DNA of 64,000 nucleotides from Candidatus Omnitrophota bacterium. Its GTDB lineage: Bacteria; Omnitrophota; Gorgyraeia; Zapsychrales; Fredricksoniimonadaceae. Of the stretch, positions 9,015-29,283 are shown piece after piece. The notes under the pieces were generated by a model. The model was not told the origin of the DNA, ran no database searches, and saw nothing but the letters and a program-made list of their open reading frames with translations. The DNA is taken from NCBI GenBank assembly GCA_044225175.1, contig JBGAJA010000001.1:678711-742710 (forward strand), read 5' to 3'. A program made the translations under genes and the position numbers. Within the stretch, counting starts at the first letter, position 1. Each line of letters opens with the position of its first letter.

Positions 9015-9643
9015 TTATTTTTCTTCAGTAAAGATAAATCTTGGAGTTCTGAGGCAGTTAATTCCATGTCTAAAACAAAATTATCAATTCTACGAACAAA
9101 GTAGTTATAGCTAACAACAGCTGGGATTGCAACAATAAGCCCTGCTGCCGTGCAAATAAGTGCTTCAGAAATACCTGCTGTAACTACATCCATTCCCCCG
9201 GAAGCAGTTTTAGATACGTCATGAAAGGCTCTGATAATACCAAGAACGGTTCCAAACAATCCGATATAAACAGCGGTCCCACCAATTGTTCCCACAATAC
9301 TTGTAAATCTTTCTAATTTGAGAGTTTCGATTGTGATCTCACGTTCCATAGAGTTAGAAATCACCTTTTCATCATGACCTAAAACATTTAAGCCTGCTAA
9401 GGCAACGCGGGCAGATGGGGTGTCAGAATTACGGCAAAAATCAATAGCAGTGTTAATTTGGGAACGGGAACTTTCTTTACGGATATTTTCAATTAATTGA
9501 CTACGGGAGATGGAGGATCGGCGTTTGAAATACCAAAGACGTTCAATAATAACGGCAATGGATAAAATGGAACATAAGATCAAAATGTACATGGTGAAAC
9601 CACCAGCATTGATGATTTCAAAAATATTTTTATCTTGAAACAT
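9011..9643 (-). CDS. exbB: MotA/TolQ/ExbB proton-channel protein
   Basis: 210 aa with three TM helices and the conserved C-terminal MotA_ExbB core (GTVLGIIRAF...GISEALICTAAGLIVAIPAVVSYNYF). Confidence 0.8.
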   Translation of the reverse strand: MFQDKNIFEIINAGGFTMYILILCSILSIAVIIERLWYFKRRSSISRSQLIENIRKESSRSQINTAIDFCRNSDTPSARVALAGLNVLGHDEKVISNSMEREITIETLKLERFTSIVGTIGGTAVYIGLFGTVLGIIRAFHDVSKTASGGMDVVTAGISEALICTAAGLIVAIPAVVSYNYFVRRIDNFVLDMELTASELQDLSLLKKNK

Positions 9644-11511: not shown

Positions 11512-12009
11512 ATGATAAAGACAAATATACATACAATTAGTGTTTTAGTAGCCAACAAACCAGGCGTTTTAGTTCGTATTGCCCTCGTCTTTGCACGTCG
11601 CGCATACAATATAGATTCTCTAGTTGTCTCCCCTACTGTTAATCCAAAATACTCACGTATGACGATTACAGCTCAAGGTGATCCTGTGACCTTAGAACAA
11701 ATTATCAAGAACGTTGATAAATTGGTCGATGTGATTCATTGCTCTGAACACGATGTTACTCAGTCTATTGAGAAAGAATTAGCTCTCTTTAAGATTAAAA
11801 CATCTCCTGCGGCCAAGACTTTCCTCTCTAAGAACGCCCGTAAATTCCATACAAAAGTGGATGATTCAACCCAAGGCATTTTGGTGATTGAACAAACAGG
11901 AACAACAGCTGAATTAGATGAATTCGAAGCTTTGCTTAAGAAATTTCATTTAATTGAAATGGTTCGTACTGGTAAGGTTTTGATGGCTAAGGGGAAGGAA
12001 TCGACTTAG
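11512..12009 (+). CDS. ilvN: Acetolactate synthase small (regulatory, ACT-domain) subunit
   Basis: 165 aa: ISVLVANKPGVLVRIALVFARRAYNIDSLVVSPT...SRMTI is the canonical IlvH/IlvN ACT domain; lies directly downstream of ilvB. Confidence 0.85.
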   Translation: MIKTNIHTISVLVANKPGVLVRIALVFARRAYNIDSLVVSPTVNPKYSRMTITAQGDPVTLEQIIKNVDKLVDVIHCSEHDVTQSIEKELALFKIKTSPAAKTFLSKNARKFHTKVDDSTQGILVIEQTGTTAELDEFEALLKKFHLIEMVRTGKVLMAKGKEST

Positions 12010-12409
12010 AGCAAGAAATAATTTTCGGTAATTCTTGAGGTGGTAATATCACAAGTGCCACCTCAATATATTCTTCAGTATGTTCAATAGAAGTAATCTT
12101 ACATCTGTCTAAATCATATTTCGTATCTGTAATCCCTAAATACTGAACAATCCCTGCTTTTAATGCATCTAATTCGAGATATAAGATGAATTGACGTTCC
12201 TGGTCCTCATTTAATCCTAACGCAGAAACAAGCATTTGAAACTCCAAGTCCAAAATTTCTGTCAATGACTTACCTTTACAAAAGTCAGATAAACCTGTTT
12301 GAGCGCTAATTTCACTAGAACAAGTAATTTTAGCAAACTGAAAACTTAAGAAATTTTCGTTCGCATCTAATCGAAGGTTAAGTCCTGAAGAACTATCCGA
12401 ACAAGGCAT
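11987..12409 (-). CDS. Hypothetical protein (140 aa)
   Basis: ORF only. Its start abuts the stop of the upstream AsmA-like gene (possible coupling). No recognisable motif. Confidence 0.3.
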   Translation of the reverse strand: MPCSDSSSGLNLRLDANENFLSFQFAKITCSSEISAQTGLSDFCKGKSLTEILDLEFQMLVSALGLNEDQERQFILYLELDALKAGIVQYLGITDTKYDLDRCKITSIEHTEEYIEVALVILPPQELPKIISCSKSIPSP

Positions 12410-12412
12410 TAG

Positions 12413-14134
12413 CTATTGGTCCTTTGTCTTTAGAATTTTGTTTAAAAATCCATTAATCATCTTCTTTGAGGAATCTTCCTGAGACTCCCCTGAAGTTTCA
12501 GCATTACCAGATTGAGGTTCAGAGGTACTTGAAGCTTCTTCTTTTGAGTCTCCACCTAAAACAGCATTAAGAATACTTTTTACCTCAGGGTTCTTATCAA
12601 GAACCTTTTCCAACTGATTAACACCCTCAGAAATAGCTACCTTCTTGGCCATATCATCAATTTGAGGTTTATAGGCAACTGAAGGAATTTTTCCAGAAAC
12701 TTGGCCTGGGATATAGATACGACCTTGTTCATCTTTTAAACCTGATAATGGCTTAACAGATTTGATCAAAGCTTGTGAAAATTCGCGACTTAAATATGTT
12801 GTAACATCCATATTGACCAAAAAATCAAAGTTAACATTACCTTGTAACAAAATTAAGAAGATCTGAGATTCGACTCGTCCATTACTAATAGAAACCACCT
12901 TGTCTTGGATAGCAAATTTAGCTTGAACTTTATCTAAGAGAGTCGTGTCACTTCCAATTTGATTCTTTAAATCTGTTGATAAAACTGCTTCAATTTGGCC
13001 TGAAAGCCCAGGAATAAAGTTCAATTTTTCTAGGATTACTTTAAGTAGATTTAATTTCTCAATCTTTCCATCGATTAAATTGAAATCTCCCTGCCCTTTA
13101 AGATTTGTAAGCATAGCTTGCGGATCAAAGCTCTCGCCGGAACCAGCAAATGTGGCATTAATCGCCCCTTTAAGTTCCACAGGCAATGTTTTCTGATCAA
13201 TTAAATCTTGAATGAGGATCGTTTTACCTTCAATTTTAAAAGTATATTTAGGCAAGGCTGTCAGACCTTGAATATCTCCTGTTGCTTCTATCTGGCCATT
13301 GGAACCAATATGTCCATCCAATTGCTTTACAGATAGGTTCTTTAAATTAGTCTCTGCGAGCAAAGTAATTCGATCAATAGGATTTAAAAGCTCTCTAAAT
13401 CCAACATATCCATCATTTAATTTAATCGTTATTAAAATATTCTCATTTAAGCCTTTCTCTGAGGCTTGAAGTTGTGGTATTTGAACCAATAGCTTACCTT
13501 TAATTTGGGAAGGCCAAACAGGGACATCCTTTAAAAGAGGAGTAATTGTTTTTACACGAGCCATATCTAACTGGCTCAAATCACTTGAAACATTGATGTC
13601 TGTCATATGAAAAGTGGATTGACCCATATCCAGGGCACAATGACTTTGGAGTTCAATATTAAATTGGCTAGTGCTTAGAACTTTAACCTTCAAATTAAAA
13701 TCAAAAGGATTTTTTAAAGAAAAATTATTAACTATAGCTTTCATATGATCAATTGGAACTTGAATCTTGATAGGACTATCTAAAGAAATGATACTGCTTT
13801 TCAGGGAGATCTCTGAGGTTTGTATTTGATTTGTCATGATTGCAATAGGGTTAAGCTTTGCACTAGCTTGCTGGATTGTCAAAATTGGATTTGATGTCGG
13901 TGGATCATTGCTGATTGAGACGTTGTCAAGAACCAAAGTCAAACCTTTAAATAAACTAAAATCCAAATTGCCATGTCCCACTTTAACTTCTCTGTGCAGT
14001 GATTGGCTTAAAGTTTGAGTGATTTGATTAAGATATTTATTAATATCAAAAGTTTTGATAAAAACAATAAATCCAATAAAAAGAATTAGAATCAAGGTTA
14101 AAAAGATTACAAAAATTGTTTTTAATATTCTCAT
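12413..14134 (-). CDS. AsmA-like, N-terminally anchored envelope protein
   Basis: 573 aa with an N-terminal TM anchor (IFVIFLTLILILFIGFIVFI) followed by a long beta-rich periplasmic region typical of the AsmA/DUF748 family. The C-terminus is acidic and Ser-rich. Confidence 0.45.
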   Translation of the reverse strand: MRILKTIFVIFLTLILILFIGFIVFIKTFDINKYLNQITQTLSQSLHREVKVGHGNLDFSLFKGLTLVLDNVSISNDPPTSNPILTIQQASAKLNPIAIMTNQIQTSEISLKSSIISLDSPIKIQVPIDHMKAIVNNFSLKNPFDFNLKVKVLSTSQFNIELQSHCALDMGQSTFHMTDINVSSDLSQLDMARVKTITPLLKDVPVWPSQIKGKLLVQIPQLQASEKGLNENILITIKLNDGYVGFRELLNPIDRITLLAETNLKNLSVKQLDGHIGSNGQIEATGDIQGLTALPKYTFKIEGKTILIQDLIDQKTLPVELKGAINATFAGSGESFDPQAMLTNLKGQGDFNLIDGKIEKLNLLKVILEKLNFIPGLSGQIEAVLSTDLKNQIGSDTTLLDKVQAKFAIQDKVVSISNGRVESQIFLILLQGNVNFDFLVNMDVTTYLSREFSQALIKSVKPLSGLKDEQGRIYIPGQVSGKIPSVAYKPQIDDMAKKVAISEGVNQLEKVLDKNPEVKSILNAVLGGDSKEEASSTSEPQSGNAETSGESQEDSSKKMINGFLNKILKTKDQ

Positions 14135-14159: not shown

Positions 14160-15038
14160 TTATCTGTTGCGAAGTTCTTTTAATCTTTGGATTTGATCCT
14201 GGACACGCTGATTCATTTCTTGGGTTTGGACAAGAGAGCGGTTTTGATTTGTATTATTAACAGTTCTTTCTTTTAAATCTCTCATTTTTTCTTTCATTGA
14301 TTCCAAGTCGGAAATATTCTTTTCATGCATATTATTAATTTGGCGCTGTTTTTGTTTAACATTATCTACAAAATCTTGCGTACGCGTAGATAACGCTTCT
14401 ACTTTTTCAAGAAATTCAGGCTTTTCTTTGAAGGCAACATCATCATGTCTTTGTCGAGCCTTCTCCTTAATTTCCTGGATTTTTGAATTCAATTCTTGGC
14501 TATCTAAAACCTGTTGTTTCATGAGATCTTCCTGAGCTCTTATTTTATCTTTAATATCCTGTAATAATCTTTGACGATTCCCGCTTTCTTCAATGGAATC
14601 AAATTCCGACTTATCCAGCATAGTTTGATTCATTTTTAAACGTTGTTCATTGTATTGCATCAATTGCTTGCTATTTTCAATAAGCAATACATTTTTATTT
14701 TGAAACTGTTCCATTAGATCTTTGATTCTTAAAATATCGGCTCTTCCTTTATCAGATAAATTTTGATTCATTTGCATGAGTGAACTTACTTGTTGTTGAG
14801 ATTCTTGATAGTACTTTTGTTGATCATGCAAGTAATCATTCAAAGAAGCTTTATCTTTTGCAGTCCGTTTAATATATTGATCAATCGTCTTTCTTTGAAT
14901 TTCTATTTCAGATTGATAACCAGATGATTTAAGAAATTCTCCAAAAACTGGCTTATCTGAAGGTGAATGTAACAAGATTTTTGCAGTAATACCGGCTAAT
15001 AAAGCTATAACAAATATTCCTATGAATATTGCGCGCAC
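14160..15038 (-). CDS. Membrane-anchored coiled-coil protein
   Basis: 292 aa with an N-terminal TM (IFIGIFVIALLAGITAKILL) followed by a Q/K/E-rich coiled coil. Confidence 0.5.
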   Translation of the reverse strand: MRAIFIGIFVIALLAGITAKILLHSPSDKPVFGEFLKSSGYQSEIEIQRKTIDQYIKRTAKDKASLNDYLHDQQKYYQESQQQVSSLMQMNQNLSDKGRADILRIKDLMEQFQNKNVLLIENSKQLMQYNEQRLKMNQTMLDKSEFDSIEESGNRQRLLQDIKDKIRAQEDLMKQQVLDSQELNSKIQEIKEKARQRHDDVAFKEKPEFLEKVEALSTRTQDFVDNVKQKQRQINNMHEKNISDLESMKEKMRDLKERTVNNTNQNRSLVQTQEMNQRVQDQIQRLKELRNR

Positions 15039-15047
15039 AAGAACTCC

Positions 15048-17093
15048 TTATTTATTAAGCAATTGTTCTTCAATCAAAGCCAAATCTGTTGTCGCTTGAT
15101 GACAAACATTTCCATAACATACCGACACTTGCAGTTCCGAGTCTTTTTGAGTAAATTTCATAATTTTACTCGGTATATAATGTTTATACACGACTCTTTG
15201 CAAATGTGCAAGTTTCGAATCTGTGAGCCTTCCTTCTATAGAAATACTTCTTGAATCGTTAAAATAGAAATCTAGGGCACAAAGTGCAAATGTATAGGCA
15301 GATGGTGATTTATTGATTAAAGGAGCAAAATTATGGAATGTATTCTTTAATGAGTTAGACCATTTAGCCTCAGAAGTCATATGATAGAGTCTTATTAAAC
15401 CATAAACAGCACCTGAGTTTCCTGAAGGGATCGCCCCATCATAATGATCTTTGGGCCTCACTATAAGATCCGTAGCCTTATTGGAAGTTAGATAAAAGCC
15501 TCCGTTTAGATCATCACTAAATAAAATAATCATTTGTTCACCGAGATCTTTAGCTTTATTGAAATATTTCTCATCAAAATTTGCTTCATATAAATCTAAT
15601 AAACCATTAATCAAGAAAGCATAATCATTAAGCATGCCTTCAACGGAAGATTCATTCTTACACCAGGAATGCAAAAGTCTTGTATTGGAATAATGTTTAT
15701 TTATGACAAATTCTGCTGCCCTTTTAGCTGAATTAATATAAGAAGGTTCGTTAAGAATACAACCAGCTTGGGCAAAAACCCCTATCATCAAACCATTCCA
15801 ATCAGCTAAAACTTTGTCATCTAAATACGGCCTTGCTCGTTGAGTTCTATGTTGAAATAATTCATTTTTAGCTTGTTTAACAATTTCAACAACTTCTAAA
15901 AGGGGGAGTTTGAAATGATCTGCAGCTTGTTCCAAAGAATGTTCAATATAAAGAATATTTAGAGCAATAAATTCTCCATGGGGATCGACCCGGGCATTTC
16001 CGCCAGGTCTTACGCCATAAATGTAATTAAATATATCTGCCTGTTTCTGGTTCAATAATTTACTTATTTCTTCTTGAGACCACACATAAAAAGCTCCTTC
16101 TGCCTTATCGTCAGATCCAGAAATTATACTATCGGCATCTTCAGCTGTATAAAAGCCCCCTTCAGGATGAGTCAAATCTCTTAAAACATAATTTAACGTT
16201 TCTTTAATAATCAAAGCATATTCTGATTTACCAGTGATTTGATAGCATTCTAAATAAACTTTGATCAAAAGAGCTTGATCATATAACATTTTTTCAAAAT
16301 GAGGAATATGCCAGTATGCATCCGTTGAATAGCGATGAAAACCTCCGCCTAAGTGGTCATAAATCCCCCCCTTAGAAATGGCATTTAAAGTTTGTTCCAC
16401 CATAAATAGGGCATTTTCATTTTTTTTACTAAGGTAATAACGTAATAAGAATGAAAGTTGGTGGCCCATTGGAAACTTTGGGGAACCTCCGAAACCTCCA
16501 TTATCACGATCAAAATGATTTGATATCTGTTCAAATGCTTTATCTAGAATTTCTATTTCAAGCTCACTGTCAGAATTTAGAACATTTTGGTTCTGACCAG
16601 ATAAGACGCGTGTAATTTCTTCACTTGAGGCTAAGAGCTGTTCACGTTGATTTTGCCAAGCTTGTGTAACAGAATTAAGAACATCTATAAAACCAGGAGC
16701 ACCCCATTTGGGATATGGTGGAAAGTAAGTACCTGCATAAAAAGGTTTGCCCTCTGAAGTCATAAATACTGTTAAAGGCCAACCACCCTGCCCTGTCATC
16801 ATAGAGGCCGCAGTCATATAGATCTGATCAATATCAGGACGTTCCTCTCGATCAACTTTGATAGAAATAAAGTGTTCATTAAGAATTTTAGCTATTTCTT
16901 GATTCTCAAAGCTTTCATGAGCCATAACATGGCACCAGTGGCATGTGGAATACCCAATTGACAATAATATAGGCTTCTGTTGGGTTGCCGAGAGCTTAAA
17001 AGCTTCCTCACCCCAGGGATACCAATCTACAGGATTATCAATGTGCTGGATTAAGTAGGGACTCTTTTGACCTAATAGATGGTTGGAAGGCAT
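15048..17093 (-). CDS. Thioredoxin-domain protein of the DUF255/YyaL family (thioredoxin fold plus alpha/alpha-toroid)
   Basis: N-terminal [15 protein letters not shown]...[13 protein letters not shown] (CxxC) followed by an about 450-aa GlcNAc-2-epimerase-like domain. The ORF track start at 17114 overlaps the upstream gene by 20 bp; the Met at 17093 is the preferred start. Confidence 0.75.
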
Positions 17094-17094
17094 C

Positions 17095-20000
17095 CTATTT
17101 AGCAGTGGGCTCAAAAAGATCTAAAGTTTTAGCTATCTCATCTTTACGAGAAGATTTAGGAATCTTTTGAGAAATCACAGGATTTGATTGTTTTGGCACA
17201 ATAATTGAAGAAGAAGGTACTTTATTCATTAAAACTCTAGATTTATTTAAAAGTTCTTCAGTTTTCTTATATTTAGGTATTAAATCCTGAATATCTGAGA
17301 ATCTTTGTGCGGCTTCTCTATAATTTCCAGATTTATATAGTTTTAATGCTTCAGAATACATTGACTCAACACCACTATTAAATTGCTGGCGAATTACCGA
17401 TCTTTGAGATTCTAAAGCATCTTGACGTTCTTTAACTGCTTTCTCGATAGCAAGTCGTTCCTTATCTTTAGCACGAGCTAATTCCTCTTCTTTTATTTGT
17501 GCTAAGCGTTTTCTTTCTTTTTCTTCAGCTGCTTGTCTTCTTCGCTCAGTCTCTTTTTGACGCTCTAATTCTTTTTCTTTACGTGTAGCTTCAATTTTCT
17601 TTTGATCTTCTTCTTTTTGCTTACGAATTTCTTCTAATTTCTTTTGTTCTTCTTCTTTTTGCTTACGAATTTCTTCTAATTTCTTTTGTTCTTCCTCTTT
17701 TTGTTTACGAATTCTTTCTAATTTTTTTTGTTCTTCTTCTTTTTTATCTTTGATCTCTTGTTCTTTTCTCAATCGATCTTCTTCTTTTTGTTTTCTTTCT
17801 TCTTCAATTTTCTTTCTTTCATTCTCTTGTTTTTGCTTCAATTCTTCCTTTTTTCGATTCAATTCTTCTTCTTTCGCTTTTTTTAGATCTTCAATCCGCT
17901 TTTGTTCAATTTCTTGTTTATGCCTTAACTCTTCTTCTTTTTTGCGATTTTGTTCCTTCTTTTCCTCTAAGGGAGCATCATTCTTTTTAACTTCTATCTT
18001 AGGTTGTTCAACAACTTTAACTGGATCCGCAATTATCTTAGGAACATCGGGAATATGTTTAATTTCTGCCGGATTTCGTTGTAATGAAATTTCTTTTTGC
18101 GACTCTTTTTTTGCTGGTTTCAATTTCCTAAAATGATAAACCTGCTCTTTTTGACGAAGTTGTTGATCAGAATTTCTACGTTGAGTCTCTAAACGTTGCT
18201 GCTGTCTTTCTTCTATTTTTAATGATTCAAAACGTCGACGCTCTTCTTGCTGCTGAGCTTCCATAAGATTTTTTTGTCTTTCTAGCTCATAAGTTAAACG
18301 TCTCTGGCGTTGCTGCTCCTTAACATCCATTAAATCAGCAACTCTCTGTTGACGAAGTCTTTCAGCTAAATAATCAGATCTTTCTTTCTCAACTTTGTTC
18401 TTGGTCTTATAAACATCGTTTTTCATGATGTGGTCAATTTTATTTAAATATGAAGTTGCCCGATCATCACCTTGAGAAGCTAATTCTCCGAAAATGATTC
18501 TGGCTTGAGCGTATTTCTTTACACCATACAACTCAACTCCTTGACGATAAATCACCTCACGTTGACGCCTAAGATCCCTGTTTTTATATGATTCAGCCTC
18601 TTTTGCTTCAGCAATGTGTTCTTGTTTTCTTTCTTTTTCCAGGGAAGCGATATTAGTAAATTTATGACTACGAAGACGTTTTTGTATAGAAACTTTTTTA
18701 GCTTCTTCTTTAATGATAAGTTCTACTTTTGATTGAGATTTCTCCAACATTTCTTGCTCTGTCTCATGAGCTAAAGTTTGTTTAATTGTTTTTAATTCAA
18801 TCATTGTATGTTCAAGATCTTCAAACCTAGTTTTTGCAGCAGCGTAATCCTTATTCTTCGCAAATTTTAGAATTTCATCATTAATTTTTGATGCTCTAAT
18901 GGCAACTTCAGATAATCTTTCTTTTAATTCTTCAATTTTTTCTTTTCTATGTTGAGATTCTTCTATTCTTCTTTTAATTCTTTCCTCTTTAAGTCTCTTT
19001 TCCTCTTCTATAGCACGCTCAGCAGCCGCCTGCTCTTCAACACGTTTTCGATCTTCATCGATATGCATTAAATAATCATGCGTCGCTTTATACCCCGGTT
19101 GAATATTTTCTACCTCTAAAAATCTTATTTTTGCCCCTTGAAAATCTTTTTCTTTGAGTAAATTTAAGGCTTCACTATAATTTTCCTGTGCTTTCTGTAA
19201 TCTAATCTGTGCTTTTTCTTTATATTCCTGTTGAAGTCTTCGTTGTTCTTCTTCTCTAGCTTCTCTGAGCGTTCTGTCTTTTTCTTCACGTAAATTTTGT
19301 AAAACTTGATCAACTTTTGCTAATTTTGATTTTGCAATATTTGTTTGCTTATCATCTGATAAATTAACTATTTGCCCATATAGCCTTGAAGCTCTCTGAG
19401 AAAGTTCGTCTAAAAGCTTGGCTTCATCTACTTGTGTATTATTATTAGTAGTAGAAGAAACAGGATGATTTATCTTTGTTGTTTCATCTATTTGTTGAGA
19501 TTCTAGACCACTAGGTTGGGACTTTTGAAGCTCTTTGGCATGTTTATCAAGGAATGCTTTTTGATTTTTTGCAACACGATTCTTTTCTTCCTGCTCAAGC
19601 TTATTAAATTCAACCCTATCAACTACAGATAAAGATTTCTTTTGTTTTTCTTGCTCTAAGAACTTCTTTCTTTTTTCTTCTAGACGTTGAGCTGCTTCTT
19701 GTTCTAAATTTTTTTCTCTTTCTTGTCTTCTGTTGGCTTCAGCAAGCGCTTTGTCAGTTTTTCTTAAATAAGAATCTACAGACTTATACTCTTTGTCTAC
19801 TTTTACAATTTCCTCAAATTTTGATTTTGCTTCAATGTAATTATGAGCTTTATAAAGACTAATCCCTTCAGTATACATCGCTTCAACATTTTTCATTAGT
19901 TCTTTGCTGTTTTCATTTTGCTGTTGGAGCGGGGGAATAGCTTGTTTCTTAGCTTGTTTTGAAAGGTCTTCGATTTGTTTCTTGGCAATTTCTTGATCTA

Positions 20001-21738
20001 TAGAAACCAAATACTTTTGAGTTGCTTTATAATTACCTATTAATTGTTCAACATTCTTAAAACCTTCTTTTGCTTCTTGATATTTTTTCTGTCGATATAA
20101 AGACAAGGCTATCTGATAACTATCTTCTGTTTTTACTTTGAGTTGTTTTTGTTTTTCTAGTTCTTGGCGTTTTTGTTCAGCTTGCTTCTCTCGTTTAGCC
20201 TTCTCTTCATCTTTACGCTGTTGTCTCAAGCTTCTTTGTTTTTCTAGTTCTTCTTGTTTGCTTTTCTCTTCTAAAGTTTGCTGCTTTTTCTGTTCTTTCT
20301 CGCGTTGTTGGTCTAAAATTTTTTGCTTAGATTGTTCTTCTAACCGTTTTTTCTGTTCTTCTTTTTGCTTTTTCTCTTCTTCTCTTTTTTCAATTTCTTT
20401 TTGTTGATTACGTTTTAATTCAAGTTCTTTTATCTTTTGTTGGTCGATTAAATCTTGTTTAGCTTGATTGGTATGAAATAATTTTTCTTGTTCTGTTTCT
20501 TGTTGCCGTGTTTTTTCCTTACGGGCGTTATCTATCTCGGCTTGTTTTTCAATGATAGCTCTTTGTTTTTGATTTTCATCTTGAAGCTTCTTAATCATTT
20601 CTTGCTGCTCTTTTTGTTTTTCAAGGAATTTTTTATTTTCTTCCGCTTCCAATTGTTTTTGTTTGGCTTGATTAAGCAAAGATTGTCTCTCTATTTCTAA
20701 AGCCTTTAATCTCAACTTTTCTTTCTCTTGTTTTTCTTTGTCTATGGCCTGTTGAATTTTTAATGCGTCTTGCTTCTTTTGATTTTCTTCTTTTAATCTT
20801 TTAAGTTCATTATTCTTTTCTTCCAAAAGTTTTTGACGTTCTTGTTCTTTTAAACGTTTTTCTTCTTCTTTTTTCTGAATCTGTTCTTTCTTTAAACGCT
20901 GACGTTCTAACTCTTTTTGCTTTTGTTCTTCTTTAGCTTGTTCGTTTTTCTTGCGCAAATCTTCAGCCTGTTGTTCTTTTTGTTTTTTAATATTTTCTGC
21001 ATCGGCTTGTCTTTTTTGTCTGTCTAACTCGGCTTGTTGTTCTTTTTGTTTCTTAATATTCTCTGCTTCTGTTTGCTTTTTTTGTCGTTCCAACTCAACT
21101 TGCTGTCTTTTTTGTTCCAAAATTTTTTCTTCTTTTAGTCGGTCACTAATTTGTTTCAGGTAAGTTTTGGTTGATTTGTAATTAGGAAAGGATTTCTCGA
21201 GATTCTCAAAAGTACTTTGAGCATCACCATAATTCTTTTGTCGATAATAGGATAAAGCTTGCTGATAGAGATCTTCAGTTCTTTGCTCTGATTCTCTTTT
21301 CTGATCAAGCATTTCTTTCTGCTGCAGATCTTTTTGTTTTCTTAAAGCTATTTCCTGTTTGCGTAAACGCTCTTCACTTATCTTAATATTAGCAATTAAC
21401 TCAGCACGTTCAGTAACCTTGACAGCTTTATTAAAATAATAACGGGCAGAATCAAATTTGCCTTCTTCCATAAGTAGAAGGCCTTTATCATAATAATCTT
21501 TTGCGTTTGTCTCTCGAATTTCTTGTTTTTTGGCGTTTGATTCACTTTTAATTTTTTGATTTAAAGACTTAATATTTTCTTGAGATTCAACAATCAATCT
21601 TTTGAGCGTCTCTTCATAATTAGTTGTTGAACTATTGGGGACTGAGGCAGCTTGTTCATCAGCAAAGACACTAGATGAACAAAAAATACTTAATAAAAGT
21701 ATCGTAGGAAGAAAAGTAAGTGAAGAAATTTTTTGCAT
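17095..21738 (-). CDS. Giant (1547 aa) secreted Lys/Glu/Gln-rich coiled-coil protein with eight TPR-like modules
   Basis: Signal peptide ([26 protein letters not shown]). Eight dispersed modules of about 40 aa of the form a-L-x-L-Y-x4-Y-x2-A-x3-F-x7-P-x-YK-x-T-x2-YL-x2-I are separated by long KE-rich heptad regions. Contains in-frame tandem DNA repeats. Confidence 0.8.
17560..17740. repeat. Tandem 45-bp repeat (about 4 copies, two of them identical) inside the giant gene
   Basis: Unit ttcttctttttgcttacgaatttcttctaatttcttttgttc (minus-strand sense). Encodes [14 protein letters not shown] repeated four times. Confidence 0.8.
20958..21090. repeat. Tandem 60-bp repeat (2 copies) inside the giant gene
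   Basis: The ...ttgttgttctttttgtt...aatatt.tctgc...ttgtc unit is repeated. Encodes [22 protein letters not shown] twice. Confidence 0.7.
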
Positions 21739-21838: not shown

Positions 21839-22906
21839 TTATGATGCAAAGGGTTTTTGATTCTGATCATAAATAGTACGGATATCTTTTTGTATATCTA
21901 AAAATGCCTCTACTATTTTTGGAGCAAAATTTTTCCCGCTACAATTCTTAATCTCAGCTAAAGCATCTTCTACGGTCCATGCTTTTTTATAGGGTCTCAC
22001 TGAAGTTAATGCATCAAACACATCTGCAACTGAGCAAATCTGTCCAACCAAAGGAATATCTTCCCCTCCAATTTTATTAGGATAGCCATTACCATCAAAA
22101 CGTTCATGATGGGTCAAAGCAATCGTTTCTGCCATCTTAAGAAAGGGCGAATTGCTTCCTGATAGAATTTTAGCGCCAATTGTGGTATGAGTTTTAATAA
22201 TATCAAATTCAGCGGGTTCTAACTTTCCTGGTTTAAGCAAAATAGAGTCTGGAATTGCTATTTTTCCAATATCATGAAGCGGAGATGTGTTGAGAATCAT
22301 TTCAGCTTGAGCTGGCGTACTTCCCATGGCTAAAGCTAGTTTTTGGCAATAGAAACTCATGCGGATGATATGATCTCCTGTATCTGTATCACGAAGCTCT
22401 GCTGCATTAGATAAACGACGAATAACATCCACTCGAGTTTGCTTGAGCTCAGTTGTTCTCTTCTCAACCTGAGCTTCTAAAGATAAATTATGATTTTTAA
22501 TTTGTTTATACAAAAGACGGACTTCAATAATATTACGAGCTCGTAAAACAACTTCGCTTGCTAGGTACGGTTTATGTAAGAAATCTTTGGCGCCTGCGGC
22601 TAAGGCCTTAAAACGAGCGCTTTCATCTTCTGCTGAAAGAATCAATATAGGCAAATAATCACCTGGAATAGCGTTAGCTAATTGAGCCATGATATCAAAT
22701 CCTGACATTACCGGCATATTAATATCAAGCAATAGTAAATCAGGCTGAAGTTCTAAGTATAAATCTTTTGCTTTGGTGGAATCAGTTGTAATTGTGATAT
22801 CTATGAAACCTGCTGAGGAAAGTATTTTTTTGAGGATTTGGAGATTAAGGATGTTATCGTCAACAGCTAAAATCTTTGCACCAAGAATTTTCTCTTCTGA
22901 AAGCAC
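21839..22906 (-). CDS. Response regulator with HD-GYP phosphodiesterase output (RpfG-like)
   Basis: 355 aa: REC domain (LLLLDINMP, conserved D) plus HD-GYP (HHERFDGNGYP). Confidence 0.8.
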   Translation of the reverse strand: MLSEEKILGAKILAVDDNILNLQILKKILSSAGFIDITITTDSTKAKDLYLELQPDLLLLDINMPVMSGFDIMAQLANAIPGDYLPILILSAEDESARFKALAAGAKDFLHKPYLASEVVLRARNIIEVRLLYKQIKNHNLSLEAQVEKRTTELKQTRVDVIRRLSNAAELRDTDTGDHIIRMSFYCQKLALAMGSTPAQAEMILNTSPLHDIGKIAIPDSILLKPGKLEPAEFDIIKTHTTIGAKILSGSNSPFLKMAETIALTHHERFDGNGYPNKIGGEDIPLVGQICSVADVFDALTSVRPYKKAWTVEDALAEIKNCSGKNFAPKIVEAFLDIQKDIRTIYDQNQKPFAS

Positions 22907-22916
22907 TTAATCTCCT

Positions 22917-23666
22917 TTATTGGAATTTCCAAGAACGCAGTTTATCTAAAAAGATATCATCCGTCAAGCCGCAACGAACTGCGGTTACTGTAACATATCC
23001 ATTCTTCAGTGCATACGTATCATATGAATTGTCATCCACATGTTTGGGATTTGCTCCTGTCATCCAGAAATAGACTTTTTCATGAGGACTCAAACGTTTT
23101 TCAAATTTCCCAAATATGGGTTCTGCTCCCTGTTTAGTCGGAAGAATACCCTTAATCTTTCCAAGAGGAACATTAACGTTTAAGAATGTGCCTTTTGGTA
23201 ATGTATGTTTGAATGCTAGTTTAGCTAACTTTGCTCCAACTTTGGCTGCCTGAGTAAAATCCGGGTTCTCATGGGTATCTAAGGAAAGTGCAATTGAGTC
23301 AACCCCCATCAAAGCACCTTCTCTTGCACCTGCAACAGTTCCGGAATAAAAGACGCTGCAACCATCATTACCGCCAAAATTAATTCCAGACACAACCAGA
23401 TCAGGTTTCTTGCCTTTAAGAATAACTTCAATCCCAACTTTTACACAATCGGCTGGCTTTCCACTAACGGCATGACCAAAGAATTTATTATTAAGCTTAA
23501 CATCACGAACGAAGAGCGGCTGGTACAAGGTTATTCCATGCCCTACAGAACTTTGCTCATTCTCTGGAGCAACAACGGTTACATCAGCAAATTTAATAAG
23601 CTCTTTATAAATGGCAAGGATGCCAGGAGCAAAAATGCCATCATCATTAGTCAAAAGAATTTTCAT
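22917..23666 (-). CDS. surE: 5'/3'-nucleotidase SurE
   Basis: 249 aa with the N-terminal [11 protein letters not shown] motif (SurE DD metal site). Confidence 0.85.
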   Translation of the reverse strand: MKILLTNDDGIFAPGILAIYKELIKFADVTVVAPENEQSSVGHGITLYQPLFVRDVKLNNKFFGHAVSGKPADCVKVGIEVILKGKKPDLVVSGINFGGNDGCSVFYSGTVAGAREGALMGVDSIALSLDTHENPDFTQAAKVGAKLAKLAFKHTLPKGTFLNVNVPLGKIKGILPTKQGAEPIFGKFEKRLSPHEKVYFWMTGANPKHVDDNSYDTYALKNGYVTVTAVRCGLTDDIFLDKLRSWKFQ

Positions 23667-25468
23667 TAAATACTATACTCCGGATCTAAAACAACAGCTT
23701 TGATCAGAAGATCGACAATTTTTTTGACCGCGGCATCTGATTCTTCATTCTCAATAAGATTTAAGTCAATGCTTGATTCTAAGAATCGGTTCTCTCCAAC
23801 ATTGACAACAAAGGTACGGTTGGGACTATTTAGCTTCTTAAGCATATCTAATTCATATTGATCAATATCTGTGATACTCGTAATCATAATCAGACCTGCA
23901 TCGGTCATAATATGGGCTAACTCACCTAACTGTTCTAAGGCTTCATACTTTCCTAATGTCTTGTCTTTGGAATCGTGAGTGGCTAATGCTAAACGGTTAG
24001 ACACTCCAAGAAAATAAACTTTCTTCTCTAAGTTGAATAATTGTTCTTCAAGAGCTTTGGCAATACGCTGCTTACCCGTATCTATCTTTCCTGTGATCAC
24101 AATAAAAGCAGATTTATGCTGATACTTAGATGATCGAATATCAGGGGTGATATGACTTCTTTCCCATCCATACTCTCTATTCTTAATATGGTTAGAAAGC
24201 AAGCTATCACTATCAAAAACTGGAGCTAAAATAATTCCACCACCGGCAATTTCATAGTTATCAACTAAGACAAAACGTCCTGTTTCAGCAACATCCGTGA
24301 TCAGGTCAAAAGCAATAGGCTTTAAAGTTTCAAAAACCACCTCTCCTACTTCATGCCGGTCGACGTGAGGCTTGTTACTGGAGGCAAGTTCAGCGGCATT
24401 AAGCACATGTAATACTTCAGAAACTACCACCGGCACTTGTTGAGTGGCAATTTTTAACTTATATGTCTTATTCTTAACTAAAGGCTGCTTACCCATCCAA
24501 AAGATATTAGCCTTGAACTTGGATGACACTTGCGGATTCTTCTCAGAAGGCTTAACCATAACCTCACCTGGACGAATGTAAATCTCTGTTTCCATGGTAA
24601 AGCCGGAGCTTTGACCAGCAAATGCTTCTGTACGTGTAGCTCCATTAAAATATTCAATTGTTTTAATACGATTCTTCTTACCAGACGGAAGGAATACAAT
24701 TTCATCACCAAGCTTGATCGTTCCAGTCTCAACACGACCTGCAACAATGCGGCGATCATCCCCTTCTTCTGTGAATTTATAAATATCTTGAACGGGCATA
24801 CGAAAGACTTGCTGGTCCTTAGGAGCTGCCTTTTCAAAGTTATCTAAAACTCCAAGGATAGACTGACCTTTATACCAAGGCATATTTGGTGAAGGACTAA
24901 CCATATTGTCCCCATGAAATGCGGCAATTGGAATAAAACAGTTGGGCTTTAAATCAATTTCATTTAAAAATTTAGTATAATCCGTTTTAATTTGTTCAAA
25001 AACTTTTTGATCATAACCAACTAAGTCCATCTTATTCACACACACAGCCACATTTTTGATTCCAAGAAATCTCATCACATAACCATGGCGTTTGGAGTTT
25101 TCTTTGATTCCCTCATGAGCATCAATGAGCAAAAGTGCTGCCTCAGCACGTGCTGCTCCTGAAATCATGTTCTTTAAAAACTCGATATGCCCTGGAGCAT
25201 CAATAATAATGTAATCACGCTTGGCAGATTTAAAGAAGCTACGGGCCGTATCAATTGTAATCCCTTGGGATTGTTCGTCCTTAAGAGCATCAAGCAAGAA
25301 AGCATACTCAAAAGGCTTAGCATTACGGGCACAATTGGCCTTTACTGCTTCGAGTTTACCATCCGGCAGTGACCCAGTATCAGCCAAAAGCCGTCCAACC
25401 AAGGTGCTTTTCCCATGGTCTACATGCCCTACAATAACCACATTCATTTGTTCGCGCTGAATATTCAT
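23666..25468 (-). CDS. cysN: Sulfate adenylyltransferase subunit 1 (CysN GTPase) fused to a degenerate APS-kinase-like C-terminal domain
   Basis: 600 aa. GTPase G1-G4 motifs (GHVDHGKST; DAPGH; NKMD). The C-terminal about 165 aa align to CysC, but the P-loop reads [10 protein letters not shown] (not GLSGSGKST), the DGDN motif is replaced by LGVSNRL, and the KGLYKKAR lid is absent. Confidence 0.85.
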
Positions 25469-25471
25469 AAT

Positions 25472-26059
25472 TTAATCCATATCCTTCCAAGGCATCATAA
25501 TTCCTTCAACTTTATGAGGAGCAATTAAAGGTTCTGAAAAAGAAGCGGGAAAATTGCGAATGGGACTCTCTATATGAGGCCAACAACATTCCGCGCATAA
25601 TAATTCTGCAGGTTTAGTAATTTCCGTAAACTTGGGGGCTTCTTTTCCCCATTGATAACTACCCTTATCCCAATAGGCAATACTTGCTAAAGACGAACAT
25701 TTCTGACAAGAACCTTGAATAGTATTTAAACCCCTGTCAATTACATCTCCAGCAATATCTGCAAGTTGATATTTCTTTATATCCTCGGGGGTATAATATT
25801 GGTAATAAAAACCTTTTGGGTTCCTGATATTCCAATCAGGATATAACACAATCATTTTTTTGTTAAAGCCAAGAAACACTTGTTTAAATTCACTAATTAA
25901 ATGCTTCCTGCAAAGATCTTTTTCTTTTCCATTTGGATATCGTAAAGTATCCATAGCTTCTTGATCACATCCGGGACATTTTTTACCAAAAGCCCGATGT
26001 AAAACTGTATAAAGGTATAAAAAAATGATAGTGCCAACTATCGCAATTAATACGATCAT
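25472..26059 (-). CDS. Membrane-anchored Cys-rich protein of unknown function (two CxxC motifs plus CAECC)
   Basis: 195 aa with an N-terminal TM, then CPGC ... CQKC ... CAECC. Overlaps the cysD stop and cysN start, so it is embedded in the operon. Confidence 0.45.
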   Translation of the reverse strand: MIVLIAIVGTIIFLYLYTVLHRAFGKKCPGCDQEAMDTLRYPNGKEKDLCRKHLISEFKQVFLGFNKKMIVLYPDWNIRNPKGFYYQYYTPEDIKKYQLADIAGDVIDRGLNTIQGSCQKCSSLASIAYWDKGSYQWGKEAPKFTEITKPAELLCAECCWPHIESPIRNFPASFSEPLIAPHKVEGIMMPWKDMD

Positions 26060-26970
26060 TACATGTACCCTTCTTTACGTAACGTTTCCAAACCCCCGCC
26101 ATCTTCTTTATCCTGGGCGCGGCCGGAGCGTTCGGCAATGTTCTTAAACTTGCCTTCTCTGAGTTCTTTGACAATGTCGGCCACATTCTTAGCTGTGGAA
26201 TCAACAGGTGTTGTGCAAGGGTAGCATCCTAAGGAACGATATCTTTTTCCCTTACCTTGATCGAAGTATAGGTCAGTGATAGGGATCTTTTCACGTTCAA
26301 TGTATTCCCAAATATTAAGTTCAGTCCAGTCCAGCAGTGGATGAATACGAATATGGGTTCCTGGAGCGAAATCCGTCTTGAATTGATTCCAAAGTTCAGG
26401 CGGTTGATCACCTACATCCCAGTCGCTGTTTCTATCTCTTGGAGAGAAATAACGCTCCTTGGAACGACTGCCTTCTTCGTCAGCGCGTGCGCCTACAATG
26501 ACGCCAATATATGGCTCCGTGTTGGTATCCACGTCATATTTGCCTGTTTTGTGATTCAATCTCCAGCGCTGCCATTCTCCTGACAAAGTCTTCTTTAAAG
26601 CCTCGCTTTTAAGCGCTTTGCAGCATGAAATTCTGTCCAAATTACCGTCGGGGAACGTGCGTTTTTCCTTCAAAGCTTGGGTGTTTTGACCAATCACCAT
26701 GTTGAGATTAAATTCCATGGCAAGCTTGTCACGATATTGAATCATCTCTGGAATTTTATAGCTCGTATCAATATGGACTAAAGGAAATGGCACATGGCCA
26801 TAGAATGCCTTGCGGGCAAGCCACAAAAGCACAGTTGAGTCTTTTCCAATCGACCAAAGCATCACCAGTGACTTAAACTCTCTATATGCCTCACGCAGAA
26901 TGTAAACGCTTTGTGATTCGAGTTGATCTAGTTTATCCATTGTTTTTGCCATAATTAAATCCTTCATCAA
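26059..26970 (-). CDS. cysD: Sulfate adenylyltransferase subunit 2
   Basis: 303 aa with a PAPS-reductase-like fold carrying the PP-loop SIGKDS; full-length CysD similarity. Confidence 0.85.
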
Positions 26971-26990
26971 TATCCTCTTTACAGGATCCT

Positions 26991-27767
26991 CTATCTATCA
27001 TGTGTTCTGTCATGATTTTTTAATGATGTTCCCTTCCATTTGGGGTTGTTATGCAGCCCACATTCTTTTTGCTCAGGCTGTTCCCACCACCAGCGGCCTG
27101 CACGGATATCTTCGCCAGGTTTAACCGCTCTGGTACAACAAGCACAGCCGATTGAAATAAAGCCTTGTGCATGCAAAGGGTTCACATCAATCTTTTGTTC
27201 TTGAATATACTTATGCACATCTTCCAATGTCCAATCTGCTAAAGGATTGATCTTAATCTTGCTATTTGCATCATCCCATTCAAAAATCTCCAAATTGGCA
27301 CGAGTTAAAGCTTGTTGTTTACGTAATCCTACAATCCAAGCATCCACATTGATTAAAGCCCTTTGTAAAGGTTCAACCTTGCGGATATGGCAGCATAATT
27401 TACGATTCTCAACACTGTTATAAAACAAATTAATCCCTTTTTCTTGAACCATTGTTTCAAGATGTTGATTGTTTGGATAATAGACTTTGAATTTAACTTT
27501 AGGATATTTCTTCTGATTCTTATCTAAGAGTTCATATGTTTCTTGAAACAATCGTCCAGTATCTAAAGTAAAGATCTCAATAAAAGGAGCCCCCTTGGAA
27601 ATAATATCTGTTATTACCTGGTCTTCTTCACCCAGGCTCGTTGCAAAATTGACCTTATCACCAAACTCTTGGTAGGCTAATCTGATAATGCCCGCAGCAT
27701 CCAATCCCTTAGCTTTTTCATTAAGCTGTTGAATCTTGTCTTTGTTCATATCTTCCTTAAATATCAA
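26991..27767 (-). CDS. cysH: Adenylyl-sulfate (APS) reductase, thioredoxin-dependent, Fe-S type
   Basis: 258 aa. C-terminal ECGLH catalytic motif plus both cluster-binding cysteine pairs that distinguish APS from PAPS reductases ([12 protein letters not shown] matches CCxxRKxxPL; SIGCACCT matches SxGCxxCT). Confidence 0.85.
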
Positions 27768-28182
27768 AACTAATTGTTTTTACTTGCTCACGCTGACGAT
27801 CACAAAGATCAGCAAGACTGACTTCTTTTAGGGTTTGAATAATACTTTGATCGATTTTCTGCCACAAAAGGCTTATCGCATCACCCTTAATTGTTTTACG
27901 CTTCTCTTCATCAAAAGTTCCAAGACCGCCTAATTGTTTAACCACATCAGCTAAGTTAATTTCTTTGGGTGAAACTGCCAATATATAGCCACCTGATTTC
28001 CCTCGAACACTGTGAATATACCCCAAACCTTTTAATGCAATCAAGATATGAATCAAAAATTTCTGTGATACTCCAGCTTTACGGCTAAGACGACTAATTT
28101 GAAGAGGAGTTGTATTAGGCCAATGAAGTCCGAGCTCTAAAAGGGCCCTTACTGCATAATCCATTCTAGCAGAAACTTTCAT
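27757..28182 (-). CDS. Rrf2-family transcriptional regulator (IscR/CymR-like)
   Basis: 141 aa: MKVSARMDYAVRALLEL...wHTH (ISRLSRKAGVSQKFLIHILIALKGLGYIHSVRGKSGGY). Overlaps cysH by 11 bp. Confidence 0.75.
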   Translation of the reverse strand: MKVSARMDYAVRALLELGLHWPNTTPLQISRLSRKAGVSQKFLIHILIALKGLGYIHSVRGKSGGYILAVSPKEINLADVVKQLGGLGTFDEEKRKTIKGDAISLLWQKIDQSIIQTLKEVSLADLCDRQREQVKTISFDI

Positions 28183-28197
28183 AAGCCACCTCTTTCC

Positions 28198-29283
28198 TTA
28201 AATCTCAAACTCATAATAGGTCACATTGCGTAAAGAAACATAGACCTCATCATTTTTCTTTAATGCTAGAGCACGAAATTCATCTTGTGAAATCTCAGCT
28301 TGAATGGGATCGCCATCGCTTGTTATTAAATCAACCTTAACAACGGAACCTGCAGGATTCAAATACTCAATGACGGCCTTTAGAGAAGACTTGTCTTTTG
28401 ATTGACGGGTTATCTCAAACTGATGAGGCCTCACAAAGACATTGGCAGTTTTGGAATTCTTATCCACAGTGGGCAAATCAATGGCTGAACTTCCTACATA
28501 TGCTTTGCCATCCTCTACTCGAGCGTGGAATAGATTAACATTCCCTAAAAAATTTAAAACAAATTTATTGGCTGGTTTATGATAAACCTCATCTGGAGTA
28601 CCAACTTGTTCAACCTTACCCTTATTCATCACCACAATACGATCTGCCACTTCAAGAGCTTCTTCTTGATCGTGAGTAACAAAAAGGGTTGTAATGTGAA
28701 GTTGATCGTGAAAGTGTCTAAGCCAAGTGCGTAATTCTTTACGCACTTGGGCATCTAAAGCCCCAAAGGGCTCATCTAAAAGTAAAACCTTAGGTTCAAT
28801 AGCTAGTGCACGAGCCAAAGCAATGCGTTGACGTTGTCCACCTGATAACTGCCAAGGATATCGATTCCCCACCCAATCCAATTGCACCAAATTCAAAAGT
28901 TCATTAACCTTTGCCTTAATTATTTGCTCGGATGGCCTATTTTTCTTAGGTTTGACCCGTAAACCAAAAGCAATATTATCAAATACGGTCATATGGCGAA
29001 ACAAAGCATAATGCTGAAACACAAATCCAACCCCACGATCCTGGATTTTATGCTCCTTGGTATCTTCCCCATGAAACAAGATCTCCCCCTGTTGTGCATA
29101 TTCAAGCCCCGCAATAATACGAAGCATGGTCGTCTTCCCCGACCCTGAAGGGCCCAAAAGCGCAATCAATTCCCCTGTTTGGACATTCAAACTCACATCA
29201 TCCAAAGCTTTAAAAGCCCCAAAACTCTTTGTAATATTTTTAATTTCAATACTCATAGGATTAATGCCCTCCTTGTCGGGCAA
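28198..29283 (-). CDS. cysA: Sulfate/thiosulfate ABC transporter ATP-binding protein
   Basis: 361 aa with Walker [10 protein letters not shown], signature LSGGQRQR, Walker B LLLDEP and a C-terminal TOBE domain. An alternative start at Met10 (29256) removes the overlap with cysW. Confidence 0.85.

Follow-up and report, generated by a model that had tools for sequence, protein, structure and literature searches.

Long charged helices joined by single tetratricopeptide repeats in an exported protein of Omnitrophota, a candidate scaffold of the cell envelope

Does the lysine- and glutamate-rich reading frame at positions 17095..21738 (minus strand) of a 64,000-nucleotide stretch of a Candidatus Omnitrophota genome (GenBank assembly GCA_044225175.1, contig JBGAJA010000001.1, positions 678,711 to 742,710; hereafter the window) encode a genuine protein and, if so, to which family does it belong and what is its role in the cell? 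The open reading frame (ORF) is real and encodes an exported, almost wholly helical protein in which single tetratricopeptide repeat (TPR) motifs join very long charged helices. This TPR protein belongs to an undescribed family that is essentially confined to Omnitrophota, and is divergent within it. Regarding its role, we tentatively favour, with a confidence somewhat short of even, a periplasmic segmented helical tether or scaffold of an envelope module.

The coding sequence (CDS) is complete in the ORF list, starts with ATG and codes for 1547 aa. The first-pass annotation, which was made from the DNA letters alone, had described a gene of this size with a signal peptide and a Lys/Glu/Gln-rich composition, and these points were borne out. 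Lysine and glutamate account for 16.4% each, glutamine for 11.2% and arginine for 7.8% (52% together), which makes the protein the richest family member in these four residues. The putative signal peptide (aa 1-26, 21661..21738, minus strand) shows an n-h-c pattern of Sec-type shape, read from the sequence: the 26-residue N-terminus begins with MQK, continues with a hydrophobic core and ends in the site VFA-DE, where it is followed by DEQ. Cleavage is predicted after A26. Equivalent signals, ending in AFA-D or similar, are carried by all full-length homologs. The sole cysteine, C20, is preceded by S-I-F and the protein has no lipobox. In the structure predictions with AlphaFold2 (AF2) described below, the predicted local distance difference test (pLDDT) is below 50 at aa 21-39. 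A low-complexity artefact or non-coding ORF could be ruled out, as the homologs share domain order and synteny.

The repeated modules were searched with a hidden Markov model (HMM) seeded with the TPR protein and iterated over its homologs. In this search, eight modules were detected at E<0.01, with starts at aa 82, 157, 540, 621, 853, 957, 1063 and 1460. As a query-seeded test is circular, the HMM was rebuilt from 203 modules of the homologs only, and 200 shuffles of the protein were used as the null. Six modules were recovered at 25-51 bits and one weakly (aa 957, 9.4 bits), at a shuffle maximum of 4.7 bits; the remaining first module is a cap-less variant detected by the Pfam model TPR_2 at aa 79-108. 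The eight dispersed modules of about 40 aa reported earlier were thereby found again.

All modules are encoded on the minus strand. Module 1 (aa 79-114, 21397..21504) is a TPR without the YKxT cap and matches TPR_2 when scanned singly (E=1e-5). Module 2 (aa 157-197, 21148..21270) consists of a TPR and a cap helix, with 49.7 bits against the homolog-only HMM and a TPR_6 match at E=7e-6. It is followed by module 3 (aa 540-580, 19999..20121; 50.4 bits, pLDDT >90), module 4 (aa 621-660, 19759..19878; 45.0 bits, TPR_2 at E=1.3e-4) and module 5 (aa 853-893, 19060..19182; 51.4 bits). The degenerate module 6 (aa 957-991, 18766..18870) is predicted by AF2 as a single helix-turn-helix break; modules 7 (aa 1063-1101, 18436..18552) and 8 (aa 1460-1499, 17242..17361) reach 25.1 and 41.3 bits. 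The module starts are 75-397 aa apart, and in the AF2 models the pairs of helices A and B are flanked by long helices and form no stacked array.

For the whole protein, only TPR repeat families were found in Pfam, with TPR_2 (PF07719) at 57 bits against a cut-off of 27 in three stretches. When scanned singly, five of the eight modules (1-4 and 8) match TPR_2, TPR_6 or TPR_1 at E-values of 7e-6 to 0.035, while modules 5-7 gave no Pfam match. Neither Sel1 (PF08238, at E<=1) nor MIT matched the whole protein or any single module in Pfam. A profile of the N-terminal domain of the family, compared to known structures, hits a 30-residue consensus TPR at E=7e-13. By their sequence, the modules thus read as ordinary TPR motifs, each followed by a family-specific third helix. 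The repeat named TPR-like in the first-pass annotation therefore exists, but is a standard TPR by sequence with an additional helix. The protein had been expected to be of little interest if the module were a standard TPR or Sel1 repeat and the protein a ubiquitous TolA/YfgM-type factor with conserved repeat number. The standard TPR was found, whereas the family is not such a factor and has 7-19 modules.

A phmmer search of the whole protein against the sequences of the PDB gave no match, and in NCBIfam at E<=1 only a sub-threshold LcrH/SycD match was obtained, with no TolA, CpoB or BamD model. The earlier statement that no named family fits is in agreement with this: only TPR models in Pfam, nothing above cut-off in NCBIfam and no solved structure by sequence. 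It is very improbable, and already contradicted, that the protein is an ordinary TolA, CpoB (YbgF), YfgM or BamD homolog inflated by low-complexity sequence. The automatic names of homologs ("TolA-binding protein" three times from JGI pipelines, "BamD" once) and an ExbB/TolQ-family gene at 9011-9643 point in this direction, but the NCBIfam result, the cleavable signal without a lipobox, the dispersed TPRs in place of a C-terminal three-repeat domain, the position of the gene outside a tol-pal operon and the restriction of the family to Omnitrophota-type metagenome-assembled genomes (MAGs) all speak against it.

Most of the sequence between the modules consists of charged linkers. The first long linker (aa 198-539, 20122..21147, minus strand) comprises 342 aa without proline or glycine, of which 54% are charged and 19% are glutamine; AF2 helices within and around it span aa 190-256, 274-415 and 431-549. 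Together with the second long linker (aa 1102-1459), the charged fraction is 54-55%, and opposite-charge pairs at i/i+3 and i/i+4 occur at 0.44-0.48 per residue. The mean occupancy of the heptad positions a and d by strong hydrophobics, which is a crude measure, is 0.28 in the first and 0.39 in the second linker, compared to 0.85 for GCN4 and 0.50 for tropomyosin. Because the linkers are highly charged, have this low a/d occupancy and, in the case of the first, contain no proline or glycine, they appear to fit ER/K-type single alpha-helices (SAH) better than canonical coiled coils. The description of these regions as heptad regions or coiled coils in the first-pass annotation is therefore probably wrong.

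The same data bear on a further explanation, in which the protein forms an intermediate-filament-like periplasmic polymer of multi-stranded coiled coils similar to Vibrio CrvA, with the TPR units (knuckles) as lateral or head-to-tail contacts, e.g., by insertion of a C-terminal helix with the motif ALDLF into a knuckle of the neighbouring molecule. Sparse regular hydrophobics every 7-9 residues in the 99-aa units of the homologs, a local a/d occupancy of up to 0.75 in some sequence windows, the conserved C-terminal helical peptide and a weak likeness of the knuckle to MIT domains, whose ligands are helical peptides, could be explained in this way. The low mean occupancy in the long linkers (0.28-0.39) argues against it, as do the MIT matches, which are not significant and have no counterpart in Pfam, and we consider such a polymer quite unlikely.

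Further evidence for continuous helices comes from the homologs. When 50 of their 99-aa units are aligned, neither proline nor glycine occupies a position of the 58-aa linker, and hydrophobic positions are sparse. Since no such position occurs across these units, neighbouring knuckles are joined by one continuous helix of about 80 aa and not by a hairpin. An arrangement in which the linkers form hairpins and bring the TPRs into a normal solenoid was ruled out on the basis of these units and of the continuous helices predicted by AF2.

AF2 was run on two halves of the protein with alignments of the homologs, the model of the C-terminal half covering aa 701-1547. The two halves reached a mean pLDDT of 75 and 70 and a predicted template modelling score (pTM) of 0.30 and 0.29, with about 80% helix. 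At most modules, the end of a long helix serves as TPR helix A in the models, a helix B of 13-14 residues follows, and the cap with the pattern YKxTxxYLxxI opens the next long helix. Uninterrupted helices of up to 142, 119, 112 and 182 residues are predicted. The longest one (aa 1289-1470, 17329..17874, minus strand; model residues 589-770, assigned with DSSP) has a pLDDT mostly of about 65-90. It is preceded by a proline-containing, mostly non-helical segment (aa 1204-1288, 17875..18129, minus strand; model residues 504-588) with a pLDDT mostly below 50, in which the only predicted helix consists of two 3-residue turns near aa 1277-1283. This segment is a possible hinge; together with it, low-confidence hinges are predicted at aa 258-275, 414-434 and 596-605. 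In a Foldseek search of the PDB with both models, no significant global match was found and only local TPR superpositions were obtained: segments of 46-52 residues of the aa 701-1547 model superpose on CTPR, SycD and PcrH with a root-mean-square deviation (rmsd) of 1.0-1.7 Å, while the whole-model comparison with TPR domains results in an rmsd of around 16 Å.

The linkers also contain tandem DNA repeats. An in-frame 42-bp repeat with 3.7 copies and 92% matches, encoding a 14-aa unit, is located within the 182-residue helix (17589..17744, minus strand; Tandem Repeats Finder (TRF) score 247); its best copy pair differs at 1 of 42 nt. An in-frame 66-bp repeat with 2.2 copies and 81% matches, encoding a 22-aa unit, lies in the first linker (20969..21116, minus strand; TRF score 191). 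The maximum TRF score was 77 in 100 codon-shuffled genes and 122 when codons were shuffled only within the two long linkers. As both scores exceed those of all shuffles, the repeats are genuine, in frame and imperfect. The tandem repeats of the first-pass annotation could thus be confirmed as such, but not as perfect repeats with periods of 45 and 60 bp. As the two repeats indicate, the linker length evolves by in-frame duplication, and it differs greatly between species. An exact-sequence look-up of the protein returned nothing on record, and a search of JGI metagenome contigs for close relatives gave two unrelated short matches only.

In a large protein database, 28 homologs of 996-2086 aa were found (E-values of 1e-34 to 6e-145), with TPR_2-type matches as their only Pfam marks. 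All homologs among them with an organism name originate from Candidatus Omnitrophica/Omnitrophota MAGs. A scan of GTDB with one genome per species resulted in 57 loci, of which 37 are titled Omnitrophota or Omnitrophica, including Omnitrophus and Zapsychrus. Another 17 are third-party annotation (TPA) MAGs titled "uncultured Planctomycetales" (including loci L009, L012, L014 and L015), and one locus each is titled Elusimicrobia, Lysobacterales (on a 9.6-kb contig) and Elulimicrobium. These last four titles are probably placeholder or mis-binned taxonomy. The 17 Planctomycetales-titled MAGs carry the same cluster of giant gene, TPR-rod gene and AsmA gene, described below, as the named Omnitrophota MAGs. 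With the N-terminal-domain profile, 166 proteins at E<=1e-30 and 575 at E<=1e-10, with lengths of up to 2301 aa, were retrieved from 1.84 billion cluster representatives. In the searchable literature, including the work on giant proteins of Omnitrophota (PMC10066038; 10.1101/2023.11.21.568195; 10.64898/2026.06.07.730766), no description of the family or of its link to a giant gene was found.

The members of the family share one plan. The signal peptide is followed by a 168-aa N-terminal domain, and the TPR knuckles, 7-19 per protein, are accompanied by at least one long linker of variable length; a terminal knuckle and a C-terminal motif complete the protein. The N-terminal domain is made up of a leading helix, TPR 1, a fixed spacing of 75 aa and TPR 2 with its cap; it aligns essentially gap-free over 168 aa with a mean column identity of 63%, and the TPR1-TPR2 spacing of 75 aa is kept in nearly all members, including the protein of the window. 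The later knuckles of the homologs are spaced by 92 or 99 aa, or by 63 aa in some arrays; in the protein of the window, the 99-aa spacing after TPR2 is replaced by 383 aa. The terminal module lies 22-72 aa before the C-terminus in all full-length homologs but P0020 (197 aa). The C-terminal motif, with the family consensus SxALDLF[DE], is found in the tails of the closer relatives and corresponds in the window to an 11-residue stretch (17110..17142, minus strand), at which AF2 predicts a short helix (aa 1531-1539). The protein of the window has the signal peptide, the N-terminal domain, the dispersed modules, the terminal module and the ALDLF motif as well as an AsmA-like gene downstream, and hence belongs to this family.

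For the analysis of the genomic context, 61 distinct related loci were surveyed; genes downstream were counted in the 40 loci that offer 5 kb or more on that side, and genes upstream in the 45 that offer 6 kb or more. In 36 of the 40 loci, an AsmA homolog lies downstream in the same orientation. Directly upstream of the TPR gene, a giant ORF of 1700 to >3300 aa (about 3000 aa), which often extends beyond the fetched flank, was found in 45 of 45 loci (e.g., L002:830-9928; equivalents upstream in L003-L063). The giant proteins are all mutually homologous, rich in threonine, glycine, serine and asparagine, and have a DUF11 domain besides their signal peptide. Within the last 500 aa lies a region of amphipathic strands ending in GPFxRMTGK[FY]; OMP_b-brl matched it in 11 of 20 proteins (best E=4.5e-5) and DUF2490 in 10 of 20, and porin models did so in a few proteins. 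After this region comes a helical tail of about 110 aa with a lone TPR-like motif at its end; TPR_2 matched at the extreme C-terminus in 17 of 20. The giant protein is very probably anchored in the outer membrane by the barrel, and its TPR tail would then lie in the periplasm, because outer-membrane barrels are usually oriented in this way. The pair of giant and TPR-rod genes appears to be undescribed.

This strict adjacency to the giant barrel gene and the AsmA-like gene is also what would be expected of a periplasmic assembly factor or chaperone, the knuckles of which transiently hold the unfolded beta-helical or beta-barrel giant protein or other outer-membrane proteins, like BamD or PilF, together with an AsmA/TamB-like protein. 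TPRs are classical peptide-binding modules, module 2 gives a weak YfiO/BamD match (E=4e-4), and some homologs are automatically named BamD or TolA-binding protein. The isolated TPRs, however, lack the multi-repeat concave groove of chaperone TPR domains, and the protein lacks the lipobox that BamD has. About three quarters of it are charged helix, and the exact spacing of 92 or 99 aa in the homologs suggests a geometric role; moreover, the gene persists in the lineage of the window, where no giant gene is adjacent. An assembly factor is therefore considered unlikely.

The window and locus L001 are the only exceptions to the giant-upstream arrangement. L001 (2787-6179) is the locus of P0001, the closest relative of the protein of the window. 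Both proteins, the sole family members that lack a neighbouring giant gene, have a degenerate N-terminal domain: with an HMM built without the protein of the window, its domain (aa 34-201, 21136..21639, minus strand) scores 128 bits and that of P0001 69 bits, compared to 232-255 bits for all other full-length homologs among the 28, of which five were confirmed to follow a giant gene. The degeneracy may reflect the loss of a binding partner. The lineage of the window is nonetheless near that of L002, as its AHAS is 83% identical.

Compared to L001, the TPR protein is 35% identical, the AsmA-like protein 39% and a 292-aa protein encoded next to the latter 26%, whereas the housekeeping neighbours HD-GYP, SurE, ExbB and AHAS reach 74-91%. 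Judged from these alignments, the three proteins evolve much faster than their neighbours, at a sharply raised rate. Such fast evolution, the signal peptide, the repeat-driven change in length and the adjacent gene for a giant, probably surface-exposed protein in related loci would also suit a secreted surface fibre or host/prey-interaction protein, in keeping with the symbiotic or predatory lifestyle proposed for Omnitrophota, the giant proteins of which have been proposed as adhesins (PMC10066038). For this explanation, neither a secretion-system signal nor a beta-barrel, a sorting motif or adjacent secretion genes were present. In addition, the TPR protein and the giant protein have a TPR in common that is situated, in the latter, in the tail behind the last barrel strand; by the usual topology this tail is periplasmic, so that the contact would likely be periplasmic, and the AsmA-like partner belongs to a periplasmic family. 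We regard a surface fibre as rather unlikely.

The preferred explanation remains the periplasmic scaffold or spacer, which had been one of the two roles suggested by the first-pass annotation and is still the best reading given the gene context; the other, a secreted host-interaction protein, is supported by nothing in the analysis. Its periplasmic location, its binding partners and its function as spacer or tether are what we infer. In this proposal, the TPR protein would be exported via Sec and act, with its approximately 80% alpha-helix, as an elongated structural protein of the Omnitrophota cell envelope. The long charged helices would be stiff spacers joined end to end by three-helix knuckles. 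In each knuckle, a long helix would contribute its end as TPR helix A, a helix of 14 residues would be helix B, and the following long helix, with YKxTxxYLxxI at its start, would provide the cap. The 168-aa N-terminal domain as well as the last knuckle with the ALDLF peptide are likely docking sites. The rod would stay in the periplasm, where it could tether or space the products of the conserved gene cluster; as partners, the inner-membrane-anchored AsmA-like bridge protein and, in most Omnitrophota, the outer-membrane barrel protein of about 3000 aa with its lone-TPR tail come into consideration. In-frame duplication in the linkers would change the reach of the rod.

Several points weigh against this proposal. 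No homolog of the giant protein was found in any of the six frames of the 64-kb window, and the divergence of the N-terminal domain could be lineage-specific drift and not the loss of a partner. A periplasmic rather than extracellular location is something that we infer, and no recognisable peptidoglycan-binding, lipid-anchor or membrane domain was found in the protein with Pfam and NCBIfam. As the pTM is only 0.29-0.30, the relative arrangement of the helices is not predicted. Furthermore, a DUF255 protein without signal peptide is encoded in the cluster, which is therefore not purely an envelope operon. Finally, the approximately 1100 residues in long helices, by arithmetic from the AF2 helices, correspond to an extended length on the order of 150 nm. 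This contour is far beyond any periplasm and more than three times that of the longest TolA domain II (PMC12204202), and it is comparable to the cell size of Omnitrophota of roughly 0.2 µm (PMC10066038). Hence, the rod cannot simply stand upright between the two membranes; it would have to run along the envelope, flex at its hinges or oligomerise.

A more far-reaching version, which we regard as doubtful, is a phylum-specific envelope skeleton of Omnitrophota, in which chains of single alpha-helices spliced by lone TPR knuckles would dock non-covalently on the periplasmic TPR tails of the giant proteins, with the AsmA-like protein as lipid bridge. If true, this skeleton would be an unrecognised outer-membrane tether or spacer replacing links of the Lpp, OmpM or Pal type, the reach of which is tuned by in-frame duplication.

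The genes around the TPR gene were annotated as follows. The DUF255/Thioredox_DsbH gene (15048..17114, minus strand; 688 aa, Pfam 7e-77) starts with a TTG inside the end of the TPR gene, and the 20-nt overlap of the two (17095-17114) suggests translational coupling with this cytoplasmic-looking protein; the lack of a signal peptide was read from its N-terminal sequence. In L002, the two genes are likewise called with an overlap of 20 nt (13068 vs. 13087). DUF255 genes are present in 21 of the 40 loci. Further downstream, the 292-aa protein (14160..15038, minus strand) has an N-terminal hydrophobic anchor and a helical remainder rich in glutamine, lysine, glutamate and asparagine, and belongs to no Pfam family. 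Positional equivalents of 256-360 aa exist between the DUF255 and AsmA genes in L001, L002, L004 and L005. It is followed by the AsmA-family protein (12413..14134, minus strand; 573 aa, Pfam AsmA 3e-18) with an N-terminal membrane anchor and by a 140-aa ORF from the ORF list (11987..12409, minus strand); in L003 and L004, the ORFs at the equivalent position encode a PilZ domain. Using Pfam, the gene upstream of the TPR gene (21839..22906, minus strand) was identified as a response regulator of the HD-GYP type, and SurE is also encoded on this side. The PilZ equivalents and the HD-GYP regulator hint at a control of the cluster by cyclic di-GMP. Between 11.8 and 23 kb, a scan for promoters and terminators gave fewer sites than shuffled sequences did and is uninformative as to the operon boundaries.

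At a greater distance, the ExbB/TolQ-family gene mentioned above lies about 7.5 kb from the TPR gene. An assimilatory sulfate-reduction set is encoded at 2224-4065 (plus strand) and 23666-29283 (minus strand). It comprises a CysN/CysC-like GTPase with an APS kinase remnant, two PAPS-reductase-family genes, a CysA-type ABC ATPase and a sulfite/nitrite reductase. For a 653-aa ORF at 4060-6021 (minus strand), no Pfam match at E<=1e-4 was obtained.

Omnitrophota are uncultivated, ultra-small and widespread bacteria, the giant proteins of which have often been noted but are not understood (PMC10066038; 10.1101/2023.11.21.568195; 10.64898/2026.06.07.730766). For one conserved outer-membrane protein of about 3000 aa, a constant genomic companion is identified here. 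The giant barrel protein, the rod of TPRs and charged helices and the AsmA-like protein constitute a testable three-gene envelope module. Lone TPRs as joints between helices of up to 182 predicted residues would be a natural modular spacer, which is of interest for protein design and biophysics. The value of the window itself is more modest, as the family member encoded there is divergent, no longer has the partner gene at its side and is of putative function.

Among the known systems, a Sel1-like repeat was rejected, as no match at E<=1 was obtained. The protein shares the sequence motif of TPRs, but it is not a classical TPR array, in which at least three contiguous repeats form a superhelix with a groove: its TPRs stand alone, and their A and cap helices are the ends of very long helices.

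TolA has an N-terminal anchor with an SHLS motif and a C-terminal domain III, and BamD is a lipobox lipoprotein with a contiguous five-TPR domain. An identity with TolA was rejected given the cleavable signal VFA-DE in place of an N-terminal anchor and the lack of a TolA match in Pfam and NCBIfam. The TPR protein and TolA both possess a long helical spacer, rich in lysine, glutamate and alanine in TolA, but TolA is membrane-anchored and its domain II spans 110-335 residues (PMC12204202), compared to more than 1200 helical residues behind a cleaved signal in the TPR protein. BamD/YfiO was rejected because a lipobox is absent and the sole YfiO signal covers 35 residues on module 2, with 20.5 bits below the cut-off of 25. 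CpoB likewise combines a helical region with TPRs in the periplasm, but has only about 260 aa and a contiguous C-terminal TPR domain. CpoB/YbgF was rejected, since no NCBIfam model matched, the TPRs are dispersed and the neighbours are HD-GYP, DUF255 and AsmA instead of tolQRAB-pal.

The knuckle, as 1.5 TPRs in an asymmetric three-helix bundle, weakly resembles the MIT domains of Vps4 and katanin, and the conserved C-terminal helical peptide of the family could be its ligand. MIT domains are cytoplasmic and ESCRT-related and bind helical peptides. The matches to archaeal Vps4 and katanin are not significant (E=0.003-0.08), with an rmsd of 4.1 Å over 64 residues. Lpp, Thermotoga Omp-alpha and the stalks of OmpM/SlpA have the role proposed here, a long periplasmic helical rod associated with an outer-membrane barrel. 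Those proteins, however, form trimeric coiled coils and bear either a lipid anchor, an SLH domain or a fused barrel; the TPR protein has none of these and is far longer, and its link to a barrel is put forward from the gene context.

The SAH domains known so far usually stay below about 100-200 residues, occur singly and are cytoplasmic. With the ER/K-type SAH domains of myosin-10, myosin-6 and caldesmon (PMC5378345), the linkers share the richness in E, K, R and Q, few hydrophobics, the lack of proline and glycine and the opposite-charge pairs, and AF2 predicts isolated helices of 112-182 residues. They differ in that several such helices follow one another in a bacterial protein that is exported, with TPR knuckles as joints. 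In this chaining, the predicted pattern resembles spectrin rods, in which the helix leaving one three-helix junction likewise continues into the next. Spectrin repeats, with which there is no sequence similarity, are full three-helix bundles of about 106 aa, whereas in the TPR protein the helices would overlap by only about 14 residues and the rest of each would be exposed and charged.

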